From positions 914,411 to 978,410 of the forward strand of contig CAVXXF010000002.1 of NCBI GenBank assembly GCA_963765635.1: a stretch of DNA of 64,000 nucleotides, read 5' to 3'. The position numbers were made by a program, and so were the translations under genes. Shown here in pieces: positions 9,672 to 39,891 of the stretch (its first letter is position 1; every line of letters begins with the position of its first letter). A model generated the notes under the pieces. It saw only the letters and a list, made by a program, of their open reading frames with translations. It had not been told where the DNA came from and did not search any database. This DNA is from an uncultured Thermoleophilia bacterium (GTDB lineage: Bacteria; Actinomycetota; Thermoleophilia; UBA2241).

Positions 9672-9699
9672 GCGGCGTCCGCTGGAAGAGCGCGGAGGG

Positions 9700-10950
9700 G
9701 TGAGCGGCGCGCTGCCGCGCGCCGCCGTCGTGCTCAGCGGCAACGAGCTCCTCGACGGGCGTACTCGCGACACCAACGGCGCTTTCGTGAGCGCCGACCT
9801 CAGCGGCCGGGGAGTGAAAGTGACAAGCGTCCTCACGGTCGCCGACGACGAAGAGCGTCTCACTGCGGCCCTGCAGTACTCACTGGCCGCTGAGCCCGAC
9901 CTGCTCGTGATCGGTGGCGGTCTGGGCACGACCCATGACGACCTCACCGCCGCGTGTCTGGCGCGTGCCCTCGGCGTGAGCCTCGCCGAAGACGCCACCG
10001 CGCTCGCCATGGTCCAGGAGCGCGTGCGCTGGGTCGCCGAGCGCCGCCACGTGGACTTCGACGAGCTGTTCCCCCTCGCGCGTCGGCAGGCCCTGTTGCC
10101 GGCCGGCTCCAGTCCTGTCTCTCCGGCCGGCGTCGCGCCCGGCATCGCCGCGCGCCGCGGGCCGACGCGCATCTACGCCTACCCGGGAGTGCCCCACGAG
10201 TTCCAGGCCATGTGGCGCGCCACCGCCGAGCGTCTGCAGGCCGAGGAGTTCTTCCCCGACGTCGCGGTGCGCATCGTGCGCATGTTCGGCATCGGCGAAC
10301 TGCAGGTGGCGCCGCTGCTCGACGCGGAAGCGCACGATCTGCTCGAGACGGGGATCAATGTCGGCAGGGGAGAGGTGACCGTCAGGCTACGCTACCGGCG
10401 CGGGGCGCCCGCCGACGCCCAGGCGGCGGCGCTGGTCGCCGCGCTCACCGCCGGCGCGCCGGTGTTCAGCTCCGACGGTCGCAGCGTCGACGACCTGGTC
10501 GCCGATGCTCTCCGTGCCGGCAGCCTCACGGTCGCCGTCGCGGAGTCGTGCACCGGCGGTCTGCTCGGCGCCCGACTCAGCGAGCGGCCGGGAAGCTCAG
10601 GCTACTTCCTCGGCGGCGTCATCAGCTATGCCAACGAGATCAAGATGGAACTGCTGGGCGTACCGGCGGCCATGCTCGTGCAGTACGGCGCGGTCTCCGA
10701 GGAGGTCGCTGGGGCGATGGCCGAAGGCGCGCGCGCCGCGACGGGCGCCGACTACGCTCTGGCCGTGAGCGGCGTCGCAGGGCCGGACGGCGGCACGGCG
10801 GACAAGCCCGTGGGCCTCGTCTACGTGGCCTGTTGCGGGCCGCGCCGCACGTACGGCGTGCGCGGCCTCTATCCGGGCGATCGCGTCTCGGTGCGCGAGT
10901 ACAGCGTCTCCGCGGCGCTCCACCTGCTGCGCCGGGAGCTGGAGGGGTGA
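9700..10950 (+). CDS. cinA: competence/damage-inducible protein CinA (MoCF-biosynthesis domain + CinA C-terminal)
   Basis: N-terminal VVLSGNELLDGRTRDTNG and C-terminal CinA domain (AESCTGGLLG). Confidence 0.8.
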   Translation: MSGALPRAAVVLSGNELLDGRTRDTNGAFVSADLSGRGVKVTSVLTVADDEERLTAALQYSLAAEPDLLVIGGGLGTTHDDLTAACLARALGVSLAEDATALAMVQERVRWVAERRHVDFDELFPLARRQALLPAGSSPVSPAGVAPGIAARRGPTRIYAYPGVPHEFQAMWRATAERLQAEEFFPDVAVRIVRMFGIGELQVAPLLDAEAHDLLETGINVGRGEVTVRLRYRRGAPADAQAAALVAALTAGAPVFSSDGRSVDDLVADALRAGSLTVAVAESCTGGLLGARLSERPGSSGYFLGGVISYANEIKMELLGVPAAMLVQYGAVSEEVAGAMAEGARAATGADYALAVSGVAGPDGGTADKPVGLVYVACCGPRRTYGVRGLYPGDRVSVREYSVSAALHLLRRELEG

Positions 10951-11504
10951 GTCCGGGGGGAGGCGACGAAGGGATTCTTCGCCTCTTCGTCGCCTGCGAC
11001 CTTCCAGAAGAGACGCGCCTCGCCGTCACGGCCTGGCAGCGCGAGGCGCTCGAGGGTCGCGAAGGGCTGCGCCTCAACCACGCCTTGCACATCACGCTGG
11101 CGTTTCTCGGCGCGGTGGCGGCGGCCCGCGTGCCCGAGCTCACCGAGAAGCTTTTGCAGGTTTGTGTGCGACCCTGCGATGTGGCCGTCACGGGGCCGGC
11201 CTTTCTGCCCGTGAGCGGCCCCAAACGCGTGCTCGTGCTGCGCCTCGCCGACCGCGACGGTGAGCTCGCGCGGCTGCAGGCGGCTGTGGCGGGCGCGCTT
11301 GCGGGGACCGGCCTCTTCGAAGCTGAGGGACGCCCCTGGCTGCCGCATCTCACGGTCGCCCGTTTTCGCCGTCCCCGTCAACCGTTTTCCCTGCAAAACG
11401 TCAACATCCCGGGGTTTTGTGTCGTCCGCGTCGTCTTGTATAGTAGCCTCCTGGAGAGGGCAGGCGCCGTGCACACTCCCCTGGCAGAATTCGCCGCATC
11501 CTGA
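10947..11504 (+). CDS. thpR: RNA 2',3'-cyclic phosphodiesterase (2'-5' RNA ligase family, 2H)
   Basis: Two H-x-T-x motifs ([15 protein letters not shown]). GTG start overlaps the cinA stop (GTGA). Confidence 0.7.
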
Positions 11505-11523
11505 GCAAGAGAGGAGCGCTACC

Positions 11524-12591
11524 TTGGACAAGGACAAAGCCCTTGAGGCCGCCGTCACGCAGATCGAGCGCCAGTTCGGCAAGGGCAGCGTCATGCGCCT
11601 CGGCGACCACCCCGTGAGCGACGACATGCAGTTCGTGCCCACCGGGTCGCTGGCCCTCGACATCGCTCTCGGCGTGGGCGGCATCCCGCGCGGCCGCATC
11701 GTCGAGATCTACGGCCCGGAGTCGTCGGGCAAGACGACCATGGTCTATCACCTCATCGCGCAGGCGCAGCGGCTCGGCGGCCAGGCCGCCTTCATCGACG
11801 CCGAGCACTCCATGGACCCTATCTACGCCAAAGCCATCGGCGTCGACGTCGACAACCTGCTGGTATCGCAGCCCGACTACGGAGAGCAGGCCCTCGAGAT
11901 CGCCGAGATGCTGGTCCGCAGCGGCGCCCTCGACATCGTCGCCATCGACTCCGTGGCGGCGCTCACGCCCAAGGCCGAGATCGAGGGTGAGATGGGCGAC
12001 AGCTTCGTCGGTCTGCAGGCGCGCCTCATGAGCCAGGCGTTGCGCAAGCTCGCTGGGAGCCTCAACCGCTCGGGCACCATCTGCTGCTTCACCAACCAGC
12101 TGCGCGAGAAGATCGGTGTCATGTTCGGCAGCCCCGAGGTCACCACGGGCGGCAAGGCGCTCAAGTTCTATGCCACCATCCGTCTCGACATCCGCCGCAT
12201 CGAGACACTCAAGGACGGCACCGACGCAGTCGGCAACCGCGTGCGCGTCAAGGTCGTCAAGAACAAGGTCGCGCCGCCCTTCAAGCAGGCCGAGTTCGAC
12301 ATCATGTACGGGCAAGGCATCTCGCGCGAGGGCACGCTGCTCGACCTCGGCGTCGTCCACGATGTGGTCGCCAAGAGCGGCGCCTTCTTCAGCTACAACG
12401 ACGAACGCCTCGGGCAGGGCCGCGCCAACGCCAAGGTCTTCCTCAAGGAGAACCCCGACATGGCCGACGCCATCGAGCTGCAGATCCGCGAGAAGGCCGG
12501 TCTCCCGCTGGTCTCCATCGGCGCGACGGCGCCGTCCGCGGCACCGGTCGTGCCCGAGGGCGTCGACCCGGTCACCGGCGAGGTGCTGTAG
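11524..12591 (+). CDS. recA: recombinase RecA
   Basis: Full RecA sequence (GPESSGKTT Walker A). Likely TTG start at 11524 after RBS GAGAGGAG; the upstream extension of the track ORF was rejected. TAG stop. Confidence 0.9.
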
Positions 12592-13279: not shown

Positions 13280-15061
13280 CTACTCGCCGAAGGTCATCTC
13301 GCGCAGGAAGACCTCATGGAACCGGCTGTCCATGGCCAGTTCGCGGAACGTGATCTTCCTTCGGAGCTCGGCGATCCGCTCGCGCTGACGCACGTCGATC
13401 AAGGCCATCTGCGCGCCGACTCCGGCGGCGTTCCCCACGAAAGCGATGCGGTTCGTGGCGATTGGCGGAAGCAGCCCGATGGCCAGCGCGTTATCCAGAC
13501 CCAGGTAGTTGCCGAACGCCCCGGCGACGAAGACGTGACGCAGGTCCTGGGGCTCCAGGCCGGCGTTCGAGAGCAGCAGCGACCATCCGGCGGCAATCGC
13601 TCCCTTGGCCAGCTGGAGGGCCCGTACGTCGCGCTGCGTGAAGACGATCTCGCCCTGGGCGCCCTCCGCCACCAGATACTCGAGGCCGCGTGCGCCTCGG
13701 CGCACGCGTTCGTGGGCCTGCATCAGGCCCGATCTGTCGACGACCCCGGTGGCGAGTAGTCCGGCGAGGATATCGACGACCCCGGAGCCGCAGATCCCGA
13801 CCGGCTCGGCCCGGCCGATGGTCTGGATGTGCCTTGGCCGGCCATCGGTGGTGAAGTCGATGCGCTCGATGGCGCCCTCGGTAGCCTTCATGCCGCAGGT
13901 GATCTGATAGCCCTCGAAGGCCGGCCCCGATGCGCAGCTCGTCACCGATACTTTGCCGTCCTTGACCAGCGCGATCTCGGTGTTCGTGCCGATGTCGATG
14001 GCCATGGCCGGCAGGCGCTTCGCCTCGAGGTGCGTCGCCGCGATGACGGCCAGGCAGTCTGACCCAACGAAGCCGGCGATGGGCGGCATGAAGTAGATGC
14101 GCCCCTCGGGGTTCATGGTCACGCCCAGATCGGCGGCGCGCAGTGAGAGCGGTTCGTCGAGCGCCGGCGCGAACGGAGCACCCGTCAACCCCAGGGGCGA
14201 CAGCCCCAGCGCCAGATGGTGCATCGCCGTGTTGCCCACGATCACCATGTCGTACACGTGCTGCGCGGAGATCTCCTGGCGAACGCAGAGCGTCGCGAGT
14301 ACCTCGTTGATGCCCTCTGCGGCAAGACGCGTGAGCTCGAGCAGCGCTGCTTCATCCAGAGCCTCGGTGATCCGCGAGATCACGTCCTCACCGTAACGCA
14401 TCTGCGGATTCTCGATGGCCTCCTGGTCGATCAGGTGGCCTTCCTGAAGGTCCATGAGGTAGACGATGATCTTGGACGTGCCGATGTCGACGGCGGCCCC
14501 GTAGGCGCTCAGGCCGACGTGCCTCGGCTCGATGTCGATGAGGCATCCTTCGTACATCGTGGTGGTGACCGAGAAGCGGCCGTCACGCAGGGACACGGGA
14601 AGCTTGCGCAGCACCGACAGAGGCAGAGCGGTGGCGCCCAGCTCCTCCCGCACACGCTCGCGGTCGCTGCGCGCGTCCTCGAACGTGGCGCGAGGTAGCG
14701 TGGCAGCTTGCCTGCCGACCGCGGACCGGGCCTCGCCGTGCGTGAGCTTCGAGGCCGTGAGGATCTGCCGGCGACCCGCGGTCTCGCGCACCTCGACGCT
14801 GACGCGCGCCGAGAGCGGCATGGCCTGACACGCAAGGCGCCAGCCCTCGGCGCGCTGCTCAGGCGTCAGCTTGCTCAGCTCGACGCTTGTCGGAGGGCTG
14901 AGCTCTCCCGCTCCCAAACGTACCCGGCACTTGCCGCACGTCCCCCGGCCGGCGCAGTCGACAGGCAGGCCTACGGCCGCACTCGATACGGCCGCCAGCA
15001 GCGTGTCGCCGGCGGCGACCTCGACGGTGACGCCGATGGGCTCAACAAGGACCTTGAACAC
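13280..15061 (-). CDS. corrinoid activation/regeneration protein (RamA/RACo-like: N-terminal 2Fe-2S ferredoxin + ASKHA ATPase, DUF4445)
   Basis: N-terminal plant-type ferredoxin CxxGxCGxC motif (CAGRGTCGKCRV), long ATPase domain. GTG start at 15061 with RBS AAGAGG. Divergent from mtmB. Confidence 0.75.
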   Translation of the reverse strand: MFKVLVEPIGVTVEVAAGDTLLAAVSSAAVGLPVDCAGRGTCGKCRVRLGAGELSPPTSVELSKLTPEQRAEGWRLACQAMPLSARVSVEVRETAGRRQILTASKLTHGEARSAVGRQAATLPRATFEDARSDRERVREELGATALPLSVLRKLPVSLRDGRFSVTTTMYEGCLIDIEPRHVGLSAYGAAVDIGTSKIIVYLMDLQEGHLIDQEAIENPQMRYGEDVISRITEALDEAALLELTRLAAEGINEVLATLCVRQEISAQHVYDMVIVGNTAMHHLALGLSPLGLTGAPFAPALDEPLSLRAADLGVTMNPEGRIYFMPPIAGFVGSDCLAVIAATHLEAKRLPAMAIDIGTNTEIALVKDGKVSVTSCASGPAFEGYQITCGMKATEGAIERIDFTTDGRPRHIQTIGRAEPVGICGSGVVDILAGLLATGVVDRSGLMQAHERVRRGARGLEYLVAEGAQGEIVFTQRDVRALQLAKGAIAAGWSLLLSNAGLEPQDLRHVFVAGAFGNYLGLDNALAIGLLPPIATNRIAFVGNAAGVGAQMALIDVRQRERIAELRRKITFRELAMDSRFHEVFLREMTFGE

Positions 15062-15266
15062 TGGTGCACCTCTTTCCGGGCGGGGCGAGAGCCTGGCTCT
15101 CGACGAGCGATGGCATGCGATCCTCGCTATGTATCTCACAAGGTCTGTGGATGCTGCAACGGCGGGCCCCTGGGAGTGGCGGCTGCCTGCACGACGTGCG
15201 GCCCTTCGCCGACCACTGCGGGGAGCCTGTGGAATCACCGCACCATGTTGGACAAACGGCAGTCTC

Positions 15267-15437: not shown

Positions 15438-16847
15438 ATGGCTGGACCTGGGACCAAAGCCCAGCGCGAGCGCATGTCGGTCTTCGAGGCGTACGAGAGG
15501 GCCCGCAAGGGGCCAAAGGTCGATGAGGCGGTCTGGAACTTCGAGACCATCCCGCAGACGGCCACACGCCTCAAGGAGAAGTACGGGATCAAGATGGACA
15601 AGAGCGTCATGGTCCCCACTGATCCCGAGATGATGAAGAAGCTCTATCAGGCCGGTCTCGAGATGCTCGTCGAATGCGGCGTGTACTGCATCTCCACCGG
15701 ACGCGTCATCAAGTGGACCGAAGAAGAGGTCCTTCTCAACCTCGCCACAGCGCCGAAGGAATGCGTGATCGGCGAGGGACTCCACTCCCGCCGAATGTTC
15801 CCGCGCTCGCACAAAGACACGCGTCCGCCGCTCGTCCAGGGCGGCCCCACTGGCGCGCCCTGCAGCGAAGAGCACTTCTTCGGCATCCACGAGTCATACG
15901 TCAAAGAGGGTATCGTCGACTGCATCGTCGACGGGGTGCTCTCCACGGTCAACGGCTATAACCCGGCTCCGGACACCCCGTGGGAGGTCCTCGCCGGTCG
16001 CCAGGAGATCATGATGGTCCGCATGGCGCAAGCCAAGTGCGGCCGCCTGGGGATGGGTTTGTAGGGCCCAGAGACCACTCTGAACGCTGCTGCCACGATC
16101 TCTCAGGATTTCGTGGGCGGCATGCGGAAATCAGACAACCACGAAGTCTCGCAGTTGAATGAGCTGAAGTGCGACATAGGCGCGTTGACCTTCACTTCTC
16201 ATTACAATCTCGCTGCCGACGTCGTGATGGTCGAGCAGATGCCAATCTTCGGTGGTTTTGCCGGTGGTCTCGAGGAGACGACCATCGTCAACGTCGCCAC
16301 GCATCTCAACTCTTTCGTCACGTTCGGTGGTACTTGGCACCTTGATGGTCCGGTGCACATGCGCTGGGGGATCACGACGACCAGGGAGGCCCTGGCCATC
16401 GCCGGTCACGCCATCATGGCGGTCAACTCCGTCTGGCCGAGCCTCATGAGCGGCAATCAGTACTACACGATGGCCGGTCCGTGTACGGTCATGTGCCTGC
16501 TGGAGACCGCCGCCCAGGCGATCACCGACACCTCCAGTGGTCGCGAGATCATGTCCGGCGTCGCCGCCGCCAAGGGCGTCATCACCGACAAGACCACAGG
16601 CATGGAGGCGCGGTTCATGGGCGAGTGCGCTCACGCCGTGGCCGGCATGCCTACCCAGCAGACCAACGAGATCCTCGATGCCCTCGTCAAGATGTACGAG
16701 GGCGACTACAAGACCGCCGACCAAGGCAAGTTCTACCCAGAGTGCTACGACACGGTCAAAGTCGTCCCGACCGACGAGTACCTCGAGGTCTACGACAAGG
16801 CCTGCGCCGCCATGAAGGGTCTCGGCGTCAACTACAAGCTGTGGTAG
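15438..16847 (+). CDS. mtmB: monomethylamine:corrinoid methyltransferase with in-frame UAG (predicted pyrrolysine) at 16062-16064
   Basis: The two track ORFs (15438-16064 and 16113-16847) are in the same frame, separated only by TAG. The flanks GRLGMGL*GPETTLN align to the Methanosarcina MtmB pyrrolysine site (GRPGMGV-O-GPETSLS). Strong identity elsewhere (KLYQAGLEMLVECGVYC, HEVSQLNELK). Confidence 0.8.
16062..16064 (+). other. in-frame amber codon in mtmB, predicted pyrrolysine
   Basis: TAG sits at the conserved pyrrolysine position, and the reading frame is conserved across it. Confidence 0.75.
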
Positions 16848-16895: not shown

Positions 16896-17543
16896 ATGGG
16901 AAATGAGGCGTTCTACAAAGAGGCGATCGACTCTCTCGTGAACCACGACAAGGTCGTGGCAGAAGACGTGGCCAAGCGTGCCATTGCTGCCGGCGTCAGC
17001 CCGCAGGAGATCATGCAGAACGGGTTCGTCGTTGGCATCCGCCAGGTCGGTGACCAGTTCGACGAGGGCGAGGTCTACCTGCCCGAGCTCATGCTGGCGG
17101 CGGCGGCGATGGAAGCCGCGATGGCGATCTGCAACGCAGCTCTGCCCGAGGGCGAGAGCGAGACGCGTGGCGTCGTCGTCATCGGCACCGTCGAAGGCGA
17201 CGTCCACGACATCGGCAAGGCCATCGTCTGCGCGTATCTGCGGGCGAACGGCTACGACGTTCACGACCTCGGTCGCGACGTGCCGGTGGATGCGTTCGTC
17301 GACAAGGCCGAGGAGGTCAACGCCGACATTATCGGCGCCAGCGCTCTGCTCACGGCGACCATGCGCAAGCAGGCCGAGATCCTGGCCGAGCTCGACGACC
17401 GGGGCATCCGCGACAAGTACAAGTTCGTGGTCGGCGGCGCGCCGTGTACGCAGGAGTACGCGGACTCCATCGGCGCCGACGCCTACGCCGCGGACGCCAG
17501 CGACGGCGTCAAGAAGATCGAGAAGATGCTGGGCATCAAGTAA
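16896..17543 (+). CDS. mtmC: monomethylamine corrinoid protein (B12-binding)
   Basis: DxHxxG cobalamin-binding motif (GDVHDIGK), MtmC-like N-terminal helical domain. RBS GGAGG. Confidence 0.8.
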   Translation: MGNEAFYKEAIDSLVNHDKVVAEDVAKRAIAAGVSPQEIMQNGFVVGIRQVGDQFDEGEVYLPELMLAAAAMEAAMAICNAALPEGESETRGVVVIGTVEGDVHDIGKAIVCAYLRANGYDVHDLGRDVPVDAFVDKAEEVNADIIGASALLTATMRKQAEILAELDDRGIRDKYKFVVGGAPCTQEYADSIGADAYAADASDGVKKIEKMLGIK

Positions 17544-22646: not shown

Positions 22647-24044
22647 GTGAGCAATGTATGGACCCGAATGGGTGACGGCCAGGCCGTCGTGATGACGAGC
22701 GACGAACTTCGCAAGGACATCATCGAGGCGTCCGAGGATGCCGCCGACAAGGGCAAAGTCCCGATTCTCGAAGACAACGAGATCGACAAGATGATGGAGA
22801 TCTTCACCGCTCCATGGCGTGTCATCGGTGTCGAGCCCGGCCACGAAGTACCCCTCACCAAGGATGAAACGGCGTGCACGCTGATCTCTTCGCAGCTGTC
22901 GAGCGGCTCGCACCTGCCCATCAGTCGCGAAGCCGCCGTCGAGATCTTCGAGCGCGTCTTCGCCTTCGACACCATGGAGCTGGGCTGGATCGACTACTCG
23001 TTCAAGCAGGCCAAGCCGATGGTCTCGCTCGACCAGGTCTCCATCGAGCGCCTTCTGGCGACCACGGTGTTCCCCATTCTCTACGGCGCGATGCCGAACA
23101 TGGGGCTCTACTACACGCCTGACGGGCCCTTCACCAACCCGGCCGACCTTCTCGGCATGATGAAGGTCGAAGAGGCGCGGGAGATGCAGATGAAGGCCTC
23201 CGAGCTCTGCGAGGAGGACATGATCTTCGTCTGCAAGCGTATGGCCGAGATCGGCGCCGACGGCATCGACTTCGACACCACCGCTTCGGCCGGTGACGCC
23301 GACTTCCTGGCCGTGCTCAAGACGGTCGAGGAGCTCAAGAAGACCACCAACCTCGGCATCGAGGTCGGCATGTCCGGCGAGTTCATCCTGGGCATGCACG
23401 GCGAGGTGGAGTACAAGGGCACGAAGCTCGCCGGCCTGTGGCCGCACCAGCAGCTCAAGGTCGTTGAGCAGGCGGGCGCGGACATGTTCGGTCCTGTCGT
23501 GAACACCAAGACCAACAAGTCGGCGGCCTGGAACGTCGCCCGCGCCGTGACCATGGTGAAGGAAGTGTGCAAGCAGGCCACGATCCCGATCCACGCCAAC
23601 GTGGGAATGGGCGTGGGTGGCACGCCGATGTTCGAGACGCCGCCTGTCGACGCTCTCAGCCGCGCAAGCGTCGCGATGGTCGAGATCGCCAAAGTCGACG
23701 GGTTGTAGGTGGGTGTGGGCGATCCCTTCGGGATGTCCCTTACGCACGCGATTGCCTCCGGAATGGGTGGCATTCGTACCGCTGGAGATCTGGTGGCGCG
23801 GATGCAGCTCAACTACAAGATGAGACTCCCTGAGGCCAAGAAGTACGTGGCGGACAAGCTTCACGTGAGTGCTTTTGACCTGTCGGACTCCACCGTGATG
23901 CGCCAACTGCGGGAAGAGCTTGACATCGGCCTCATCGAGGCCGTCCCCGGTATGGCCAAAGGCTTGGCGGCGAAGGACCACATCGCCAGGCTCCTGGACA
24001 TCAAGATCGATTGCGTGGAGAAGCTCAAGGAGAAGCTCGCCTGA
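22647..24044 (+). CDS. mtbB: dimethylamine:corrinoid methyltransferase with in-frame UAG (predicted pyrrolysine) at 23706-23708
   Basis: The ORFs 22647-23708 and 23709-24044 share a frame across [21 protein letters not shown] aligns to the MtbB pyrrolysine site (VEIAGVDGI-O-IGVGDPLGM). Strong identity ([25 protein letters not shown]). Confidence 0.8.
23706..23708 (+). other. in-frame amber codon in mtbB, predicted pyrrolysine
   Basis: TAG at the conserved position with frame continuity. Confidence 0.75.
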
Positions 24045-24105: not shown

Positions 24106-24750
24106 ATGGCAAATGAAGACTTCTACACCGAAGCGATGGAGGCCATCCGCGCCTGCGACAGGGTCAAGGCCACCGATGTGGCTACCAGGGCTCTCGCGGC
24201 GGGCGTCGCTCCGGACGACCTGCTCAAGCTGGGCTTCATCCCCGGCATCGCGAAGATGGGCGACCTCTTCGAGCGCGGCGAGGTGTTCCTCCCCGAGCTC
24301 GTGCTCGCCGCGGACGCCATGACCGGCGCCGCCGAGGTGTGCAACGCGGCGCTGCCCGAGGGTGAGGGTGGCAAGAAAGCGGTCGTCGTCATCGGGACCG
24401 TGCAGGGCGACGTCCACGATATCGGCAAGACCATCGTCGTCGCCTTCCTGCGTGCCAACGGCTACGACGTCACCGATCTCGGCCGCGATATCTCCGGTGA
24501 CAAGTTCATCGCCGCAGCTGAGGAGCTCAACGCCGACGTCATCGGCATGAGCGCGCTGCTCACCACGACCATGCGTGAGCAGACCCGCGTGATCGAGGCC
24601 CTCAAGGCCGCCGGTGTACGCGACAAATACAAGGTCATCGTCGGCGGCGGCGCCTGCACGGAGCAGTGGGCCACCAAGATCGAGGCCGATGCCTACGCAG
24701 AAGACGCCAACGACGGCGTGCGCAAGATCAACCAGCTCACGGGCAATTGA
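24106..24750 (+). CDS. mtbC: dimethylamine corrinoid protein (B12-binding)
   Basis: GDVHDIGK motif; paralogous to mtmC. Confidence 0.8.
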   Translation: MANEDFYTEAMEAIRACDRVKATDVATRALAAGVAPDDLLKLGFIPGIAKMGDLFERGEVFLPELVLAADAMTGAAEVCNAALPEGEGGKKAVVVIGTVQGDVHDIGKTIVVAFLRANGYDVTDLGRDISGDKFIAAAEELNADVIGMSALLTTTMREQTRVIEALKAAGVRDKYKVIVGGGACTEQWATKIEADAYAEDANDGVRKINQLTGN

Positions 24751-28721: not shown

Positions 28722-29048
28722 TCAACCGCCGGAGATCGCCACGAGCGCGTCTTTGGGGAACGCCAGCTCCGCGGCCACGCGCATCGCCTTCAGCGCCGAA
28801 GCCGGCACGATGCAGTCGGTGCAGCAGCGGCCCTCACGGCCCGCGGCGAGCACGGTGTTCTCGCTGCGGGGATCGATCTCCTTGTAGGCGTCGAGTGGCG
28901 ACCGTTCGGCGAGCAGCGCCGCAAACCGGGTCACGTTGTCGCAGTCGGTCTCGAGAACGATGCTCACGGCACGGCCGTCACTCGTCTCGGCGCGCGCGAG
29001 CGTACGAAAGCCACAGATGCCGGGCTGGATATCCGCCTCTGCTTGCAT
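28722..29048 (-). CDS. hypothetical 108-aa Cys-containing protein (C12, C36, CCxxC)
   Basis: ORF with an 18-bp perfect palindrome 35 bp upstream; no family recognised. Confidence 0.35.
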   Translation of the reverse strand: MQAEADIQPGICGFRTLARAETSDGRAVSIVLETDCDNVTRFAALLAERSPLDAYKEIDPRSENTVLAAGREGRCCTDCIVPASALKAMRVAAELAFPKDALVAISGG

Positions 29049-29100: not shown

Positions 29101-29329
29101 CGCCGTCAAGGCGCCGCAACGACGACAGGCTGTTGATTCGCCGTCCGTGCGTGAGATACTAGCTCTACCGAGGCGGTCTGGAGGGCGCTTGTCGCGCTGT
29201 GACAGCGCCCCTCGAGTGGACCGCATTGCGTGCGACTCAGTGAGAGGAGGGATGCTGCTCCGGAACACAAGGCGGTGACCGCCCAGAAAGCGGCGGTCAC
29301 GGCGCCACCACCATCCCAAAGGAGGAATT

Positions 29330-30805
29330 TTGATCCGAAGTCAACGGTCAGGCATCAATCACCAGGGCGGCATCGGCATCGATGTCTTCTCCGCAGACGA
29401 GCGGCAGGCCATCCACTGGGGCACCGTCGAGGTGCTCGAGAGGGCCGGCATCTGGGTGGAGGATGACGAGGCCCTCGACCTGTTCGCCGACGGCGGCTGC
29501 AAGGTCGACCGCTCCACGCGCAAGGTCAGGATCCCGCAGCACGTGCTCGAGGAGTGCATCGGCTGGGCGCCCTCCACGGTCACGCTCTGCGGCCGCACGC
29601 CCGACAAGGACCTCATCATGGAGGGCCGGCGCGTCGCCTTCACCAACTTCGCCGAGGGCGTCAAGGCCGTGGATCCCTGGGACGGCAAGCTGCGCCCCAC
29701 CACGAAGAAGGACGTCGGCGATCTCGCCCGCCTCGTCGACGCGCTCGACGACATCGAGGTTTACACGATCGCCGTGACGGCTACCGACGTGCCGCCCGAG
29801 GTCGCCGAGGCACATCTCATCGAGCAGTCGCTGCTCAACACCACGAAGCCGATCTGCAGCCTGGCCCTCGGCCACCACGGCGCTCGCCTGCACATCGACG
29901 CCACGGCCGCCGTGGCCGGCGGCCACGACAAGCTGGCCGAGCGCCCCATGCTCCTCTTCCTCTCCTGCCCGGTCAGCCCGCTCAAGCTCATGGGCGAGTT
30001 CACCGGCTGCATCATCGAGGCGGCCCGCGCCCATCAGGTCGCGATGCCCCTCTCCATGGCCATGTCCGGCGGCTCCGCCCCGGTCACCCTGGCCGGCACC
30101 ATGGTCACGCATAACGCCGAGGTGCTGAGCGGCATCGTCCTCGCCCAGCTCGCCGAGAAGGGCGCCAAGTGCGTCTACGGCACCTCCACCACCGCCTTCG
30201 ACCTGCAGCGCGCTGCTGCGACCGTGGGCACCCCCGAGCTCGGCATGATCAGCGCGGCCGTCGCGGAGATGGGCCGCTACTACGGCCTGCCGACCTACGG
30301 CGCCGGGTTGTAGAGCGATTCCAAGCTCGGCGGCGACGCGCAGTGCGCCCACGAGAAGACCATCACCGGCCTCCTGCCAGCGTTGGGAGGGCTCAACCTG
30401 ATCTACGGAGCCGGGATGATCGAGTCGGGCGTCACCATCGACTACGCAACGCTCGTCATGGACAACGATATCGCGCGCATCTGTAAGTTCATCCTTCGTG
30501 GCATCCCCACGAACGACGCGACGCTGATGGTGGATGAGATCGTCGAAGTGGGGTCCGAGGAGGACTTCCTTTCGAGGATGAGCACCCTGAAGCTGATGCG
30601 TGAACACCAGTCCAAGGCCGGGAACATCGACCGCCGCGTGCGCGAAGAGTGGGAGATGGACGGCAGCACCGATATGTACACCCGCTGCGGCGAGGTGGCC
30701 AAGGAGCTCGTCGCCGGCCACAAGGTCGCGGAGCTCCCGAGCGAGATCGTCGATCAGATCCACGCCATCGTCGTTAAGGCCGAGAAGGATGCCGGAGTCG
30801 CCTGA
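29330..30805 (+). CDS. mttB: trimethylamine:corrinoid methyltransferase with in-frame UAG (predicted pyrrolysine) at 30311-30313
   Basis: The ORFs 29330-30313 and 30383-30805 share a frame across TAG. LPTYGAGL*SDSKLGGDAQCAHEKT aligns to the MttB pyrrolysine site ([24 protein letters not shown]). Possible TTG start after AAAGGAGGA. Confidence 0.8.
30311..30313 (+). other. in-frame amber codon in mttB, predicted pyrrolysine
   Basis: TAG at the conserved position with frame continuity. Confidence 0.75.
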
Positions 30806-30853: not shown

Positions 30854-31483
30854 ATGGCAGATTTTGAGACTCTCAAGAAGATGATCATCGACGGTGCCGA
30901 CGGCGCCACCGCCGAGACGCAGAAGCTGATCGACGGCGGTGCCTCGGCCCGTGACATCCTCGACCAGGCCCTGTTGCCCGGTATGGACGTTGTCGGCGCC
31001 GAGATGAAGAGCGGCGACAAGTTCATCCCCGAGGTGCTGCTCAGCGCTCGCACCATGCAGGCCTGCCTCGACCTCATCAAGCCGCACCTCGCGGCCGGTG
31101 AGACGATGAGCCTCGGCACGGTCGTGATCGGCACCGTCGAGGGCGACATGCACGATATCGGCAAGAACCTCGCCGCCATGCTGCTCTCGGGCGCCGGCTT
31201 CGAGGTCGTCAATCTGGGCAAGGGCGTCACGCCGGCCGACTTCGTGACCGCGGTCAAGGAGAACAAGGCGACGATCCTCGGCATGAGCGGCTTGCTCACG
31301 ACGACGATCCCGAAGATGCCCGAGACCATAGCCGCGCTCAAGGCCGCCGGTCTGCGCGACAGCGTCAAGGTCATCGTCGGCGGCGCGCCCGTGAGCGTCG
31401 AGTGGGCCGACGAGATCGGCGCCGACGCCTATGCGGCCAACGCCTCGCTGGGCGTCGAGAAGTGCAAGGAGCTGGTCTCCTAG
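30854..31483 (+). CDS. mttC: trimethylamine corrinoid protein (B12-binding)
   Basis: GDMHDIGK motif. TAG stop with an in-frame TGA four codons later. Confidence 0.8.
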   Translation: MADFETLKKMIIDGADGATAETQKLIDGGASARDILDQALLPGMDVVGAEMKSGDKFIPEVLLSARTMQACLDLIKPHLAAGETMSLGTVVIGTVEGDMHDIGKNLAAMLLSGAGFEVVNLGKGVTPADFVTAVKENKATILGMSGLLTTTIPKMPETIAALKAAGLRDSVKVIVGGAPVSVEWADEIGADAYAANASLGVEKCKELVS

Positions 31484-31708: not shown

Positions 31709-31887
31709 GGTGTAGAAGCGGCTTGTCGCGTTCGCGGACGCGGCAGTGAGGGGGGAGCCAGAGGATCACTCATGTGGGGCTGTTCGCGCCGAGCCCAAGT
31801 CGCCGGAAGTCCGGGGCCCCGGCATGCGCGGGCGCTGACGTCAGAACGCACCTTGTACCCTTAATAATCGCAGAAGGGGGCAACGGT

Positions 31888-33540
31888 ATGGAGGATCAAG
31901 ACCGCTCTCAGTCAGACATGATTCGGTCTGACGTTTCGGATAAGTACCTCGCCGACTACGGCGACGAGTACAAGCAATCACGCTTCCAAACCAACATGCG
32001 CCGAGACCTCAGCTGGGTCGGCGCCTTCTTCGTGGCCGCCGGCGTGCCGGCGCTGATCCTGTTCTCGATGGGTGGCATCTCCGCCGGCACCGGGCCGGTC
32101 GCCGTACTTGTATGGACGCTTTCAGTGCTGGTCGGCTTCGTCGACGCCTTCATCTACGCCGAGATCGCCGGGCTCCACCCGAAGAAGTCGGGTGGCACCG
32201 CGGTGCACGGCGCGACTGCCTGGATCCGCTACATCAGGCCCGCGGCGCCGATCTCGCTGTGGTGCAACTGGCTGGCATGGACACCGGTGCTGGCGCTCGG
32301 CTCCGGTCTCTGCGCGGGGTATCTGCTCTCTGTCTTCTTCGCCCCCGACGCCACCATCAACACGTGGTCGGTCACGATCGCCAATCTCGATTTCTTGAAG
32401 GATGGGCTGACGCTGCGCATCAACGCGGTATTCATCATCGGCGCCGTCATCATGCTCGCCGTGTGGAATATCCAGCACTACGGCATCCTGCGCACCGCGC
32501 GCGTCCAGATGATCCTCACGATCGGGGCGATGACGCCCTTGATCCTGCTGACGGTCATCCCGCTGATCACCGGCGACGTGGTGGCGAGCAACTTCTCGCC
32601 GTTCGTGCCGGTCAACGGCTCGTGGAACCTCGACGGCTGGACGGCGTTCCTGGGAGGCTTCTTCATCGCCGCTTGGTCCGCCTACGCCTTCGAGACGGCC
32701 ATCTGCTACATGAGCGAGTTCAAGAACCCCGGGCGCGACCAGGCCAAGGCCATTCTCTGGTCCGGCGTGTTCTGCATCTTGTGCTACACCGTGATCCCGT
32801 TCGTTTGGCAGGGCGTCCTCGGCACCGACTACATGCTCAAGCCCGAGATCTACTCGGGGGCCGGCGTTCCTCAGGGTTTCGCGGACATGTTCAACGCCGG
32901 CGCAACCTTCACCAAGTTCTGCGCGGTCGCCATGTTCTTCACGGTGATGCTGTCCGTGATGACGGCCATGTCGGGCTCGTCACGGACCCTCTTCCAGGGC
33001 GGTCAGGACGGCTGGCTGCCCAAGTACCTGGCGCACCTCAACAACCACAAGGTGCCGACCTACGCGATGTGGACCGACCTCATCTTCAACCTGTTCCTGC
33101 TGCTGATGTCGGACTACGTCTTCGTGCTCGCCGTCTCCAACTGCAACTACATGATCTTCAACTTCCTCAACCTGAACGCGGGCTGGATTCACCGCAGGGA
33201 CAACCCGCGCGTGCCGCGGCCCTTCAAGGCGCCGCTGCCGCTCTTCGTGCTTGGCACCTGCTTCGCCTACATGAACGTGTTCCTTCTGGGAGCCGGCGCG
33301 AACTACTGGGGCCAGGGCACGCTGCTCATGGGCTGGATCTCGGCCCTGATCGCCCTCCCGGTCTTCTACTACCGACACTACGTCACCGACAAGGGCAAGT
33401 TCCCGTCGCACATGTTCGACGACCTCATCCCCGAGGGCGAGACCGAACTGGGGCCCAAAAGGTGCGGCGTCCTGCCGTACGTCGCCGTCGCCGGCGGCCT
33501 GGCGTGCATGACCCTCGGCTACGTCATCTTCTGGGTCTGA
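31888..33540 (+). CDS. APC-superfamily permease (second copy), candidate methylamine transporter
   Basis: 12-TM APC architecture. ATG MEDQDRSQ... after a G-rich RBS; the longer upstream extension was rejected. Confidence 0.7.
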   Translation: MEDQDRSQSDMIRSDVSDKYLADYGDEYKQSRFQTNMRRDLSWVGAFFVAAGVPALILFSMGGISAGTGPVAVLVWTLSVLVGFVDAFIYAEIAGLHPKKSGGTAVHGATAWIRYIRPAAPISLWCNWLAWTPVLALGSGLCAGYLLSVFFAPDATINTWSVTIANLDFLKDGLTLRINAVFIIGAVIMLAVWNIQHYGILRTARVQMILTIGAMTPLILLTVIPLITGDVVASNFSPFVPVNGSWNLDGWTAFLGGFFIAAWSAYAFETAICYMSEFKNPGRDQAKAILWSGVFCILCYTVIPFVWQGVLGTDYMLKPEIYSGAGVPQGFADMFNAGATFTKFCAVAMFFTVMLSVMTAMSGSSRTLFQGGQDGWLPKYLAHLNNHKVPTYAMWTDLIFNLFLLLMSDYVFVLAVSNCNYMIFNFLNLNAGWIHRRDNPRVPRPFKAPLPLFVLGTCFAYMNVFLLGAGANYWGQGTLLMGWISALIALPVFYYRHYVTDKGKFPSHMFDDLIPEGETELGPKRCGVLPYVAVAGGLACMTLGYVIFWV

Positions 33541-34271: not shown

Positions 34272-34805
34272 TCAGCTCACATCCTCCTCGTCTGGCTCGT
34301 CGCCCTCGTCGTCCAGCAACCCGCGCGCCTCGAGCTTCTCGAGTGCCTCGCGCGCCAGCTTGCGGACGTCGCGGCGAGCGTCCGCAGCCAGCTCGCGCAA
34401 CCCATCCACGGCCGGGCTTCCGATCTTGTCGAGAATATCGAACACAAGGACGTGGTAGAGGTACCTCGCGTTCTCCTCGGGGTTGCCGTACGCGTCGTAC
34501 TCGCGAATCGAGGACACCAGAGGCGTGACCGCGCGGGTGCCCAGTCTCGTGAGAGCCCGTCCGGCCTCGTTGAGGAGCCGGATGCTTCGCGTCGGAAGTC
34601 GCTTCTTGCGGCCGACGCTGTGAGACTCGGCCCACATCGCCGTCTCGTAGAGGTACTCCACCACGGCAGACACGTCCTTGCGCAGCACCGACATGGCCGC
34701 GCGGCTCTCCGCAGGAGCCTTGTCGTGCAAGGCCCAGTAGACGAGTCGCGGCATGTCACCATCGCGCCGCATCTTCTCGAAGTCGGGCGGGCTGAAGATC
34801 CCCAT
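34272..34805 (-). CDS. HEAT-repeat protein (second copy)
   Basis: Helical repeats, acidic C-terminus. ATG at 34805 after AGAGG. Confidence 0.45.
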   Translation of the reverse strand: MGIFSPPDFEKMRRDGDMPRLVYWALHDKAPAESRAAMSVLRKDVSAVVEYLYETAMWAESHSVGRKKRLPTRSIRLLNEAGRALTRLGTRAVTPLVSSIREYDAYGNPEENARYLYHVLVFDILDKIGSPAVDGLRELAADARRDVRKLAREALEKLEARGLLDDEGDEPDEEDVS

Positions 34806-35019
34806 GCATCGGCCTCTGTCCGCGGGAGGTTCTGTGCCGCAGTCTAGCGGTCGGGCCGCACGTGCGCCAGCACGATTCATTCCCCACATGCCAGGCCGCC
34901 GCTATACTAGACGAGCAGCCCGCGTGGGCGCACAGACGCCGCCGGGGGCGACTGCGGCACCCGTCTCATCGCTGACAGTCGGGCCCGGTCGATTCGCCAA
35001 CTGGAAAGCGAGGTCAACG

Positions 35020-35806
35020 ATGTCAGCAGATCTCAAAGAGCAGCTGCGCTCCGCGGCGGCCGATCACGGGTTCGAGTTCTTCGGCGTCGTCGACGCCGGC
35101 AAGCTCGCGGAAGTCCCCTTCCCGCCGAACCGCTGCCTCGACGTCCCCAGCGGCTTTCTGCCCGAGGCGAAGAGCGTCATCGTGATGGGCATGCACATCT
35201 GGGACGTCATGCAGAACGCGGTGGTCACCTCGGTGCTCCCGGACGGCGCCATCCCCTTCGACGACGTCCCCGGATCCCAGTACTACAACATGTACTACGA
35301 GATCACCGAGGCTCGCGCGCATCGCTTCGCCGAGGCCGTGCGCGACGCCGGCTACAAAACCGCGGTCACGCATTTCGTCCACGCCAAGGCGGCCGCCACG
35401 CTCGCCGGTCTCGGCTGGATCGGCAAGCAGACGCTGTGCATCACGCCGCAACTGGGTCCACACGTGCGCTGGGCGTGTGTGGTCACCGATGCCGTGTTGC
35501 CCTACGACGAGCCCTTCACCGAGGACCTCTGCGGCGAGTGCGAGCTCTGCATCAAGGCGTGTCCGACGCAGGCCATCATTCCCGGGCCCCTCCCAGGGAG
35601 TGGAGCCCGGCAAGAAGGTCGACTTCTGGAAGTGCATCGTCCCGCAGGAGATGCTGGCCGAGCCCAACAAGGCGTGGCAGAAGGTGGCTGGCCACTACTC
35701 GCCGCGCGGCAGCCACGAGTGCCTCATCTGCCTGGATGCCTGCCCCATCGGCAGGGAAGAGCACGAGCGCCGCGTCAAGGCCTATGGCTTGAGGCCGAGC
35801 GGCTGA
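35020..35806 (+). pseudogene. QueG-like (DUF1730 + 2x[4Fe-4S]) Fe-S protein, +1 frameshift near 35585-35600 (pseudogene or indel error)
   Basis: The first ferredoxin motif CGECELCIKACPTQAI lies in frame 1. The second, CLICLDACPIGRE, continues in frame 2 (track ORF 35477-35806). There is a C/G homopolymer run at the junction. Confidence 0.5.
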
Positions 35807-35873
35807 CGGCGCCACGGCGGTCGCCGACCGGCGACGAACAGCCCGGCGGCACTCCTCAGAGGCTCCGGCGAAT

Positions 35874-35903
35874 TGACTTTCTGAGCGCCAATCACCTACT
35901 ATC
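35874..35903 (+). promoter_or_regulatory. candidate sigma70-like promoter TTGACT, N18, TACTAT in the rny leader region
   Basis: Hexamers read directly, about 270 bp upstream of the rny ATG. Confidence 0.4.
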
Positions 35904-36114
35904 CTCTTGCGCGACGTGTGTGCGTGCCTAGTGTATTTCACTCTCGCTCTTGTATAGCGATACGCAAGGCGCTTCGGCGCCCATTGGCTGAAACCATCGA
36001 ACCAGGGGTCCACTGTGAGAGTTTTGGGAGGTTTTACGACCTGATCGTTGTCCCGACCCCTGGGCGCTGACACAGCTGCAGATCGGTATCTCTGGCACGG
36101 GCGAGTGTGGCACT

Positions 36115-36174: not shown

Positions 36175-37707
36175 ATGATGAGTGCCGTGTACATCGTGGT
36201 GGGCCTGGCAGTGGGCGTGGTCGTGGGATACCTGATCCGCCGCAACCTCGCCTCGGGAAAGCTGGCCGGAGCGGAGCGCGAAGCCGAGAAGGTGCTGCGC
36301 GACGCCAAGCGTGAGGCCGAGACCGTCGTGAAGGAAGCTCGGCTCGAGGCCAAAGAGGAAGTGCACAAGGTGCGCAGCGAGGTCGAGACCGAGCTGCGCG
36401 GCCGGCGCGAAGAGGTCGGCAAGGCCGAGCAGCGCCTGCTGCAGCGCGACGAGCAGCTCGACTCGCGCGCCGCCGAGCAGGACCGGCGCGAGCAGTCGCT
36501 GCGCGACCGCGACGCCAACTCGCAGCGCGTCGCCGACGACCTGCAGAACGCGCACGACGAAGCCATGATCCAGCTCGAGCGTATCTCCGGGCTCAGCGCC
36601 GCGCAGGCCAAGGACATGCTGCTCAAGCAGACCGAGGACGAGGCCCGCCACGACATGGCCAAGCTCGTGCGTCAGGTCGAAGAAGAGGCACGCCGCGAGG
36701 CCGACCGCCGCGCGCGCAACATCCTCTCGCTGACGATCCAGCGTACGGCCGCCAACCACGTTGCCGAGACCACCGTGTCGGTGGTCCACCTGCCCTCCGA
36801 CGACATGAAGGGCCGCATCATCGGCCGTGAGGGACGCAACATCCGTACCCTCGAGAACACCACGGGCATCGACTTCATCATCGACGACACGCCCGAGGCC
36901 GTGGTCCTCTCGGGCTTCGACGGCGTGCGCCGCGAGACCGCGCGCCTCACGCTCACCAAGCTCATCACCGACGGGCGCATCCACCCGGCGCGCATCGAAG
37001 AGACGTACCTTCAAGCCAAGGCCGAGGTCGAGGCCACCATGGAAGAGGCGGGCGAACAGGCCTGCTTCGACACCAATGTGCACGGCGTGGCGCCCGAACT
37101 CGTCAGAGTCCTCGGGCGCCTCAAGTACCGCACGAGCTACGGGCAGAACGTGCTCAACCACTCCATCGAGGTCGCACATCTCGCCGGCATCATGGCCGCT
37201 GAGCTGGGCGCGAACGTCAAGATCGCCAAGCGCGCCGGGCTGCTGCACGACATCGGCAAGGCCGTGGACCACGAGGTCGACGGCTCGCACGCCGACATCT
37301 CTCAGGCGCTCTGCAAGAAGTACCGCGAGTCGGAGAGCGTCTGCCACGCCATCCAGGCGCACCATCAGGACATCGAGCCGCAGACCGTCGAGGCCGTGCT
37401 CGTACAGGCCGCCGACGCCATCTCCGCGGCGCGCCCTGGCGCACGCCGCGAGTCGCTGGAGAACTACGTCAAGCGGCTCGAGTCGCTGGAGCGCATCGCC
37501 GAGAGCAAGAAGGGCGTGGAGAAGTGCTTCGCCATGCAGGCGGGCCGCGAGGTGCGCGTGATGGTCAAGCCCGCCGAGATCGACGACGACGCCACGGCGC
37601 TGCTGGCCCGCGAGATCGCCCGCGACATCGAGGACCAGCTCGATTACCCGGGGCAGATCAGGGTCACCGTGATCCGCGAGAGCCGCGCCGTCGACATCGC
37701 CAAGTAG
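36175..37707 (+). CDS. rny: ribonuclease Y (N-terminal TM, coiled coil, KH, HD domains)
   Basis: Classic RNase Y architecture and sequence ([15 protein letters not shown] motif, HD domain LLHDIGK). Confidence 0.85.
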
Positions 37708-37738: not shown

Positions 37739-39065
37739 ATGCGCACTTACTACCTGCGCTCGTTCGGCTGCCAGATGAACGCCCACGACGCCGAGCGCAT
37801 CCGCGCGCTGCTCGAGGCCGAAGGCCTGGAGCGCGCGGATGCTCCCGACGGCGCCGACGTGCTCGTCTACAACACCTGCACCGTGCGCCAGAGCGCCGAC
37901 GAGCGCCTGGCCGGGCATCTGGGCACCGCCGCCCGGCTCAAGCGCGAGGACGCCGGCCGCATCGTCCTCGTCACCGGCTGCCTGCCGCAGGCCGAGCAGG
38001 ACGACTTCTTCCGGCGTTTCCCCTTCGTCGACGGCGCCCTGGGGCCGCAGAACCTGCACCGCCTGCCCGAGCTGCTCGCGGCGGCCGTGGCGCCGGCGCG
38101 GCCGGCCGGCCGGCCGCCGGGCTTCTTCGCCGACGGCGCGGCCATGAGCGGCGACCTGGCGGCGCGCCGCGAGCGCCCGTTTCAGGCCTGGGTGCAGATC
38201 ATGTCCGGCTGCACCAACTTCTGCTCGTACTGCATCGTGCCCCAGGTGCGTGGCCCCGAGCGCAGTCGCGACGTCCACGCCGTGGTGGCCGAGGTCCGTG
38301 CGCTCGTCGCCGACGGCGTGCGCGAGGTCACCCTGCTCGGCCAGAACGTCAACGCCTACGGCCTCGATCTGCAGCTGGGACGGGCGCGACGGAGCGCCGG
38401 ACTTCCCGGCGCTGCTGCGCGCCCTCGACGCCATCCCGGGCCTCGCCCGCGTGCGCTTCATGACCTCGCACCCCAAGGATCTCTCGGACGACCTCATCCG
38501 GACGATCGCCGAGCTGCCCAGCGTGTGCGAGCACGTGCATCTCCCGGCGCAGGCCGGCTCGGACCGTGTGCTGGCGGCGATGGGCCGCGGCTACACCGCG
38601 GCCGCTTACCTCGCGCGCGTGCAAGCCTTGCGCGCGGCCGTGCCCGACGTGAGCGTCACCACGGACCTCATCGCCGGTTTCCCCGGCGAGAGCGACGACG
38701 ACTTCGCACAGACGCTCGAGCTGGTGCGCGCGGCGCGGTTCGACGCGGCCTTCACGTTCGTGTTCTCGCCGCGGCGCGGCACGGCCGCCGCCGAGCTCCC
38801 GCGTCAGATCGCCGCGACGGTCAAGCGCGAGCGCGTCGAGCGTCTCATCAGCCTGACGCAGGAGCTGGCGCTTGACTCGCGGCGGCGCTGGGTGGGCCGG
38901 CGCGCCGAGGTCCTGCTCGAGGGTCCCAGCCGCGACGGCAAGGGTCTGCGGGGCCGCACGCGCCAGAACGTGACGGCGAACGTCTCCGGGTCGCTGGAAC
39001 CCGGTGCTATAGTGGAGATCGAGGTCACCGGCGCGACCTCGACGACCCTTCGCGGAAGGGCCTGA
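37739..39065 (+). pseudogene. miaB: tRNA-2-methylthio-N6-dimethylallyladenosine synthase MiaB with a single-base frameshift near 38378-38390 (possibly an indel error)
   Basis: The N-terminal 2/3 (MTTase N, CxxxCxxC) is in frame 1 (37739-38875 track ORF). The conserved C-terminal part (RVRFMTSHP, TRAM) continues in frame 2 (38250-39065). Confidence 0.7.
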
Positions 39066-39089: not shown

Positions 39090-39891
39090 ATGCAGGGCTG
39101 CATTTGTCCCCATCCTCCACTGCTCATCCCTGAGGTGGGCGGCGCCTCGCTGCGCCGGGTGAACGCCACCGTCACGGCCATGCAGCGTCTGGCCGCCGAG
39201 GTGGGGGAGCCCGAGACCGTGGTCGTCATGTCCCCCCACAGCGACGGCTACGGGGACGCGCACGTGGTGCGCACGACGCCGCGCCTGCGCGGTGATCTGC
39301 GGCCGCTTCCGCTGCCCTGAGGTCACCTTCACCTACGAAAACGACGTGCCCTTCGCTGAGCTGCTGCTGGCTCTGGCCGGCGACTATCGCCGCCTGGAGC
39401 TCGTGCCCGAGGACGGCGATGAGCTCGATTGGGGCGTGCTCGTGCCCCTGAGCTTCCTCAAGGCGCGGCAGATCGTCTCGCTATCCATCGTCAGCTCCTA
39501 CGCCGAACATCGCACGCTGGGGCAGCTCGTGCGCCGCTGCGCCGAAGAACTGGGCCGCGACACGCTGTTTCTCGCGTCTGGCGACCTCTCTCACGCGCTC
39601 ACGCACAACGCGCCGTCGCCCTACGACCCGCGCGGCAAGCTCTTCGACGACGAGGTCGTGCACATGCTGGGCTCCGGCGACTTCGCCGGGCTGGGGCGTA
39701 TGGACCCCATCCTGCTCGAAGGCGCCGCCGAGTGCGGGCTGCGCAGCATCATGGCGCTCGGCGGCTTCCTCGGCGATGACGCTACCGTCGAGCCCGAGAT
39801 CCTGAGCTACGAGGGGCCTTTCGGTGTGGGGTACATGGTGGCGCGCTTCGGAGCAGCGGGGGTGGAGCGCCAGGGAGTGGGGCATGAGTGA
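39090..39891 (+). pseudogene. Memo1/class III extradiol dioxygenase-like protein (AmmeMemoRadiSam system protein B-like) with a frameshift near 39292-39320
   Basis: The N-terminal CPHPPLLIPEVGG is in one frame; the remainder (39292-39891) is in the +1 frame. Confidence 0.55.

Follow-up and report, generated by a model that had tools for sequence, protein, structure and literature searches.

The 64-kb window analysed here (a stretch of 64,000 nucleotides, approximately 67% G+C, on contig CAVXXF010000002.1 of an uncultured Thermoleophilia bacterium, a soil actinobacterium) contains a trimethylamine:corrinoid methyltransferase gene, mttB, that is interrupted at codon 328 by an in-frame UAG (Table 1). 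Comparative genomics indicates, with a probability of roughly 0.9, that mttB is a functional gene and that its UAG is decoded as pyrrolysine (Pyl), as predicted from the position of the codon, its conservation among relatives, and the presence of pyrrolysine genes in the lineage.

The open reading frame (ORF) that begins at 30383 is in frame with the one that begins at 29330, and the coordinates of the two ORFs in the original prediction (29330-30313 and 30383-30805, in one frame across the TAG) are exact. The frame closes with a TGA at 30803-30805, and the TAG at 30311-30313 is its sole internal stop; gene callers place the start of the orthologs at the same codon, giving products of 327 amino acids. 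The parts before and after the TAG match consecutive positions of the Pfam MTTB profile (31-337, E = 3.4e-57, and 345-497, E = 1.1e-22, respectively), a succession that, judged from the profile alignments, cannot be due to chance, and the two ORFs are therefore the ends of one gene, broken at one codon. There are no signs of decay: further stops and frameshifts are absent from the gene, and conservation extends through the 163 codons that follow the TAG. No second copy of MttB was found within the window.

The product of read-through, with an undefined residue (X) at position 328, matches the NCBIfam equivalog TIGR02369, a model of the pyrrolysine-type enzyme entitled '[trimethylamine--corrinoid protein] Co-methyltransferase', over profile positions 2-469 of 469 (607.9 bits, cutoff 525), which upholds the earlier assignment of the gene to the true Pyl-type MttB. 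Its best matches in the PDB are the structures 7xcl and 7xcm of Methanosarcina barkeri MttB (E about 2.6e-108, and 2.7e-108 for 7xcl), to which it is 42.5% identical in an end-to-end alignment (residues 7-486 against 8-490). X328 falls on Pyl334 (X334) of 7xcl and on the substituted lysine of 7xcm, and the flanking sequences GAGL and SDSKLGG..HEKT align with the VAGS-Pyl334 stretch of the M. barkeri enzyme, so that the Pyl334 context recognised in the original prediction is correct. MtgB (2qne), which had been cited as a non-Pyl family member without the TAG, does have a leucine in this column and is a far weaker match (E = 6e-56). The structural study of MttB emphasises Pyl334, Tyr364, Met249 and a cis peptide between Gly110 and Thr111 (PMC9842639). 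Equivalents of Met249 (in the motif LSMAMSGGS) and of Tyr364 (in the motif LIYGAGM / IYGAGM, encoded after the UAG) are both kept in the window.

A scan in which each species was represented by a single genome identified 15 loci, most of them in metagenome-assembled genomes (MAGs) of the Microflora Danica collection; the close loci are nearly all entitled 'uncultured Thermoleophilia bacterium', apart from one assigned to the Coriobacteriaceae (L007) and one to the Actinomycetes (L010). A TAG is present in the Pyl column in 13 of 13 relatives, comprising 12 orthologs (66-95% protein identity) and a 45% identical paralog (L013). None of these loci has an internal stop other than the TAG, and all of the complete genes are closed by a TGA. 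The original prediction had considered that the closest homologs might have a lysine or other sense codon in this column together with decay elsewhere in the gene; what was found is the TAG in every one of these relatives and an intact gene. Downstream of the TAG, the frame of 163 codons is open in the orthologs and without insertions or deletions. Synonymous changes in it equal or outnumber the non-synonymous ones when the window is compared with the closer relatives (L001, L003, L005-L009), and the two kinds of change are nearly equal in number for L004. The 23 codons from the TAG to the next possible start, at 30383, are nearly invariant (SDSKLGGDAQ.AHEKTITGLLPA).

In a collection of 5.8 billion proteins, homologs at least 52% identical to the window's MttB are almost all products of 327 residues, cut by the gene caller at the TAG, and full-length homologs are found only at 48% identity or less. 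Sense codons were confirmed in the DNA of two full-length homologs at 44-48% identity, namely CTC for leucine (L023) and TGG for tryptophan (L024). These look like derivatives within the Pyl-type branch that have lost pyrrolysine, as far as their sequences indicate. Both sense-codon genes (6001-7467 of L023 and 2521-3999 of L024) adjoin copies of mttB that contain the TAG. In the alignment, Tyr364 is replaced by alanine, serine or phenylalanine in several sense-codon relatives. The other non-Pyl paralogs of the MttB family, found in L013 and L015, are only 24-27% identical to the window's MttB.

The pyrrolysine genes of the lineage were located in related genomes. In an initial database search with pyrrolysyl-tRNA synthetase (PylRS), the best 120 matches were all from relatives of Methanosarcina; the actinobacterial clade of its PylSc subunit was reached by a search of 50% identity representatives, by screening of composition and by a word-index search. 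This clade is large, the best 120 matches being at least 63% identical to the query (P0135), and it includes proteins named by NCBI as 'pyrrolysine--tRNA(Pyl) ligase large subunit [Thermoleophilia bacterium]' (P0335) and '[Actinobacteria bacterium]' (P0429). One PylSc (P0419) is encoded on contig_19728 (1,137,818 bp; L017), which also carries the 45% identical mttB paralog L013 and belongs to MAG MFD00032.bin.2.59; the locus L003, with an MttB 93% identical to that of the window, is in this MAG too. Two further contigs (L018 and L019) exceed the NCBIfam cutoffs for pylSc (312.7 bits, cutoff 178), pylSn (119.6, cutoff 51), pylD (205.6, cutoff 150) and pylB (423.8, cutoff 348), and ARAGORN calls a tRNA-Pyl(CUA) in them; their pylC is split over two ORFs, neither of which alone reaches the 248-bit cutoff, probably by a frameshift. 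Thus, the related MAGs strongly imply that the window organism would be competent to make and use pyrrolysine.

Other features of these pyl loci are as follows. L018 (12389-14463) and L019 (12389-14464), otherwise identical contigs, differ in how pylC is split and in its partial fusion with the pylD ORF, a discrepancy that is consistent with indel errors of assembly. In L017, L018 and L019, pylSc overlaps the 3' end of an amidase gene (N-acetylmuramoyl-L-alanine) by 4-14 nucleotides (around 8917-10861), and its surroundings in the Thermoleophilia relatives are of housekeeping character (gltX, cysS, tldD/pmbA), which suggests that pylSc is co-transcribed with genes unrelated to methylamines. 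The only piece of a pyl gene found near mttB in the relatives is an isolated C-terminal fragment of pylB (TIGR03910 positions 234-347; L005, 4304-4798, minus strand), located between a QueG-like gene and murG, approximately 5 kb from the mttB of that MAG; it is possibly a remnant of a pyl cluster that was formerly adjacent.

The sequence that follows the UAG was also evaluated as a possible insertion element. The Rfam model PYLIS_3 (RF02510; gathering score 38) matches it with 49.8 bits, the match starting at the UAG (model position 1). The model holds few base pairs, however, and several of them are broken in the window's mttB. The RNA downstream of the UAG folds no better than shuffled sequences (z = -0.75 for the minimum free energy), and an RNAalifold consensus of 11 orthologs gave a covariation term of -0.21 kcal/mol, with compensatory changes in 2 of 32 pairs. 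The match to PYLIS_3 is therefore explained by homology of the coding sequence and lends no support to an insertion element.

Several observations weigh against decoding of this UAG as pyrrolysine. TAG is an ordinary stop in the window, terminating 15 of its 49 curated genes (approximately 30%), including recA, rny, mtmB and mttC, so that decoding must be ambiguous; a TGA follows within 5-6 codons of the TAG stops of mtmB and mttC, and read-through of other genes in the window would add up to approximately 250 codons. Neither the window nor the sequence up to 10 kb from mttB in the relatives was found to contain pylT, pylS or pylBCD, a tblastn search with the PylRS of Methanosarcina mazei (100% identical to P0001/P0002) found no match in either the window or the mttB loci, and the only tRNA gene of the window is for tRNA-Pro. 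Pyrrolysine competence is consequently read from the genomes of relatives, the closest link between pyl genes and mttB (P0419 and L003) depends on metagenomic binning, and the argument for pyrrolysine in this organism is one from sequence. There is no second methyltransferase (MT2), the acceptor beyond MttC, in the window. Finally, the Gly110-Thr111 pair is absent: its place is taken by Ala108-Glu109 (in the motif FAEGVK; codons 108-109, 29651-29656) in the window and in 11 of the 11 orthologs that cover the region, whereas the 45% identical paralog L013 retains a glycine there (FGIG). Gly110 is reported to be 100% conserved among 66 Pyl-type MttB proteins of UniProt, and to make its contact through the main-chain carbonyl (PMC9842639); the Ala-Glu pair is therefore treated as variation specific to the clade and not as a disqualification.

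Three other explanations of the interrupted gene were considered. If the TAG were a nonsense mutation or an assembly error in a dead or decaying gene, local frameshifts relative to a 95.6% identical contig, in miaB and in a LigB-like gene, would be a precedent for sequence errors or decay, and the lack of pyl genes in the window would fit as well; but 13 independent assemblies, with identities as low as 45%, share the TAG in this column, hundreds of database entries end at exactly 327 residues, the remaining codons of all 491 are free of stops and frameshifts with those downstream conserved, and two further genes of the island have a TAG at their own canonical Pyl sites. With the relatives giving no indication of relaxed selection downstream of the TAG, and with the codon itself conserved, the possibility of a pseudogene was rejected as having next to no probability. 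Production of two polypeptides that form a split enzyme, a 327-residue N-terminal protein and a 140-residue protein initiated at the TTG at 30383, is scarcely more credible. Both ORFs do exist, and gene callers annotate them separately, but the start of the second is called at differing positions in different genomes (products of 129-160 residues), and the enzyme would forfeit the 23 nearly invariant codons between the TAG and 30383, which hold motifs in common with M. barkeri MttB. The solved MttB, moreover, is a single chain with Pyl in a loop (PMC9842639), and the split gene was rejected on grounds of conservation.

It is also very unlikely, albeit less so than either of these, that a canonical residue is placed at the UAG, by a suppressor tRNA or by near-cognate decoding, to make a non-Pyl enzyme with another substrate. 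Since a single base change would suffice to replace the TAG with a sense codon, its retention across 45-95% identity argues against this, as do the complete pyl systems of the lineage, and Tyr364, which activates the Pyl imine, is kept here and replaced in several of the sense-codon relatives. What speaks for a canonical residue is that the fold tolerates one, as in the relatives with leucine and tryptophan codons (L023 and L024), that this clade departs from the Gly110-Thr111 pair, and that the pyl genes were seen in genomes of relatives rather than in that of the window.

Decoding of the UAG as pyrrolysine remains the preferred explanation, and would be expected to proceed as follows. The genes pylT, pylSn, pylSc and pylBCD, located elsewhere in the genome as in the related MAGs, would provide for the synthesis of Pyl from lysine and the charging of tRNA-Pyl(CUA), which would compete with release factor 1 at UAG328 to yield an enzyme of 491 residues; no special RNA element downstream would be required. 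Because TAG ends approximately 30% of the genes, read-through is probably kept tolerable by regulated expression of the pyl genes and by competition with termination. The Pyl imine would bind trimethylamine (TMA), the methyl group would be transferred to Co(I)-MttC, a reductive activase would restore cobalt that becomes oxidised to Co(II), and a methylcorrinoid:tetrahydrofolate methyltransferase encoded outside the window would take the methyl group onward.

The gene mttB is part of a methylamine island of approximately 23 kb (12600-36170) situated between recA (11260-12591) and rny (36175-37707), with a G+C content (0.63-0.67) slightly below that of its flanks (0.68-0.72). A UAG is located at the canonical Pyl site, as placed by alignment, in all three of its methylamine methyltransferases. 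The monomethylamine methyltransferase MtmB matches the M. barkeri structures 1l2q and 1tv2 (E about 3.5e-157), with its X on residue 202 (Pyl202), and its gene scores 49.4 bits against Rfam PYLIS_1, below the gathering score. The dimethylamine methyltransferase MtbB matches Pfam Dimeth_Pyl at positions 5-353 and 355-462, with the TAG at position 354, and its gene scores 87.7 bits against PYLIS_2. The corrinoid protein gene mttC follows mttB as predicted, with the expected B12-binding domains and DMHDIG motif at 30854-31483; its domain match to the pyl_corrinoid model TIGR02370 (177.4 bits) is below the cutoff of 215.3 bits. The next gene, a permease that is syntenic with mttBC in the relatives, exceeds the cutoff of the NCBIfam equivalog NF053774 ('trimethylamine N-oxide permease'; 764 bits, cutoff 690), and it is thus the equivalog for trimethylamine N-oxide (TMAO), rather than a generic TMA permease, that this protein passes. 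A scan for promoters and terminators around mttB found nothing above the shuffled expectation that would fit an operon.

Table 1. Location of mttB, its sequence features and the other methylamine genes in the 64-kb window.
Feature	Position	Strand	Description
mttB, trimethylamine:corrinoid methyltransferase	29330..30805	+	491 codons including one UAG (Pyl); TTG start, TGA stop
Shine-Dalgarno-like AGGAGG	29320..29325	+	4 nucleotides before the TTG start; read from the sequence
In-frame UAG, predicted pyrrolysine codon	30311..30313	+	Codon 328; aligned to X334 of 7xcl
Part of mttB after the UAG, 163 codons	30314..30802	+	Pfam MTTB 345-497; C-terminal part of the triosephosphate isomerase (TIM) barrel, dimerisation loop, C-terminal helices
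mttC, cognate corrinoid protein	30854..31483	+	B12-binding_2 and B12-binding domains; DxHxxG (DMHDIG) cobalt-ligand motif, residue 98
APC-family permease, probable TMA/TMAO importer, in the mttP position	31774..33540	+	AA_permease_2; NF053774
RamA/AcsV-like corrinoid reductive activase	13280..15238	-	NF040756 393 bits, TIGR04270 123 bits, both below cutoffs
mtmB, monomethylamine methyltransferase	15438..16847	+	In-frame TAG 16062-16064; Pfam MtmB in both halves
mtmC, corrinoid protein	16896..17543	+	After mtmB
mtbB, dimethylamine methyltransferase	22647..24044	+	In-frame TAG 23706-23708
mtbC, corrinoid protein	24106..24750	+	After mtbB

The island is found again beside rny in several related MAGs, with rearrangements, and is therefore an established trait of the clade. 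The contigs nearest to the window (L016, L020 and L021) are 95-98% identical to it in nucleotide sequence. The flanking genes encode RNase J, FtsK, RecA, RNase Y, MiaA/B, DapF, HflX and prolyl-tRNA synthetase (ProRS), so that the host is evidently a bacterium. A small cysteine-rich ORF of family DUF6951 (28722-29048, minus strand) is divergent from mttB and keeps this position in all three of the nearest contigs, and an iron-sulfur protein of the QueG / reductive dehalogenase family is encoded at the edge of the island (34753-35931) and kept in most relatives. In comparison with L020 (95.6% identity), miaB (37739-39065) is frameshifted near 38375 and the LigB-like gene (39090-39891) near 39300; these are probably indels of assembly, or possibly real pseudogenes.

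Pyl-type mttB and mtbB in MAGs of Actinobacteriota have already been published, and in Thermoleophilia they have been noted only briefly, in metagenome studies; a literature search that combined pyrrolysine with Thermoleophilia yielded no paper devoted to the subject. The additions made here are modest: a complete island of three methylamine systems, the variation of the Gly110-Thr111 pair, and the size of the Thermoleophilia PylSc clade. That the Thermoleophilia of soils and sediments constitute a large undescribed clade of Pyl-decoding Actinomycetota, characterised by a complete mono-, di- and trimethylamine island apart from the pyl genes, a variant MttB and UAG as a frequent stop, is a proposal for which the chances seem evenly balanced. 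If it is true, these bacteria could remove significant amounts of methylamines from soils by a route other than methanogenesis. A methylamine island that is both complete and conserved, in Thermoleophilia that are widespread in soil, would carry natural expansion of the genetic code into a major soil phylum, and it would suggest that methylotrophic methanogens face bacterial competition for TMA, dimethylamine and monomethylamine. The lineage also offers a PylRS and tRNA-Pyl of high G+C content and a variant of the MttB active site for biochemical comparison.

Pyl-type MttB is a textbook family, and its known mode of action is unchanged by these findings. The window's enzyme resembles M. barkeri MttB (7XCL/7XCM/7XCN) in its full-length alignment, in the UAG at the site of Pyl334, in the retention of Tyr364 and Met249, and in the gene order mttB-mttC-permease. 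It differs in its bacterial, Thermoleophilia host with a G+C content of approximately 67%, in having Ala108-Glu109 for the cis-peptide pair Gly110-Thr111, in one extra residue after Pyl (KLGGD, versus KV-PD in M. barkeri), and in the downstream methyl acceptor, which is presumably tetrahydrofolate instead of coenzyme M. The non-Pyl members of the MttB superfamily (MtgB, 2QNE/9YCE; MtcB; MtpB; MtyB) belong to the same TIM-barrel family (PF06253) and likewise have corrinoid protein partners, but their substrates are quaternary amines, their Pyl column is occupied by leucine or another sense residue, and neither HEKT nor IYGAGM is present in them.

Bacterial use of pyrrolysine is best known from Firmicutes and Deltaproteobacteria. 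In Desulfitobacterium hafniense, Acetohalobium arabaticum and Bilophila wadsworthia, as in the window, a UAG-containing mttB is accompanied by an adjacent corrinoid protein gene and TAG is a common stop codon. Unlike those three bacteria, the window organism belongs to the Actinomycetota and has its mtm, mtb and mtt genes in one island, remote from pyl genes, which in its relatives have a housekeeping setting (gltX, tldD/pmbA, amidase). The PylRS of the lineage is split into PylSn and PylSc, as it is in all bacteria, and PylRS genes were already known in two Actinobacteria (PMC9630628). The nearest published parallel is from Stordalen Mire, where MAGs of Actinobacteriota express Pyl-type mttB and mtbB (Ellenbogen et al. 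2023, PMC10805028) and the genus RBG-16-64-13 is one of the three listed as the most active methylotrophs among Proteobacteria, Acidobacteriota and Actinobacteriota (PMC10805028). Those MAGs are of the same phylum, and there, too, genes cut at the amber codon are the evidence; that report, however, gives the matter one sentence without the anatomy of a locus, whereas the island, mtmB, the conservation of the TAG and the pyl loci of the relatives are laid out here.

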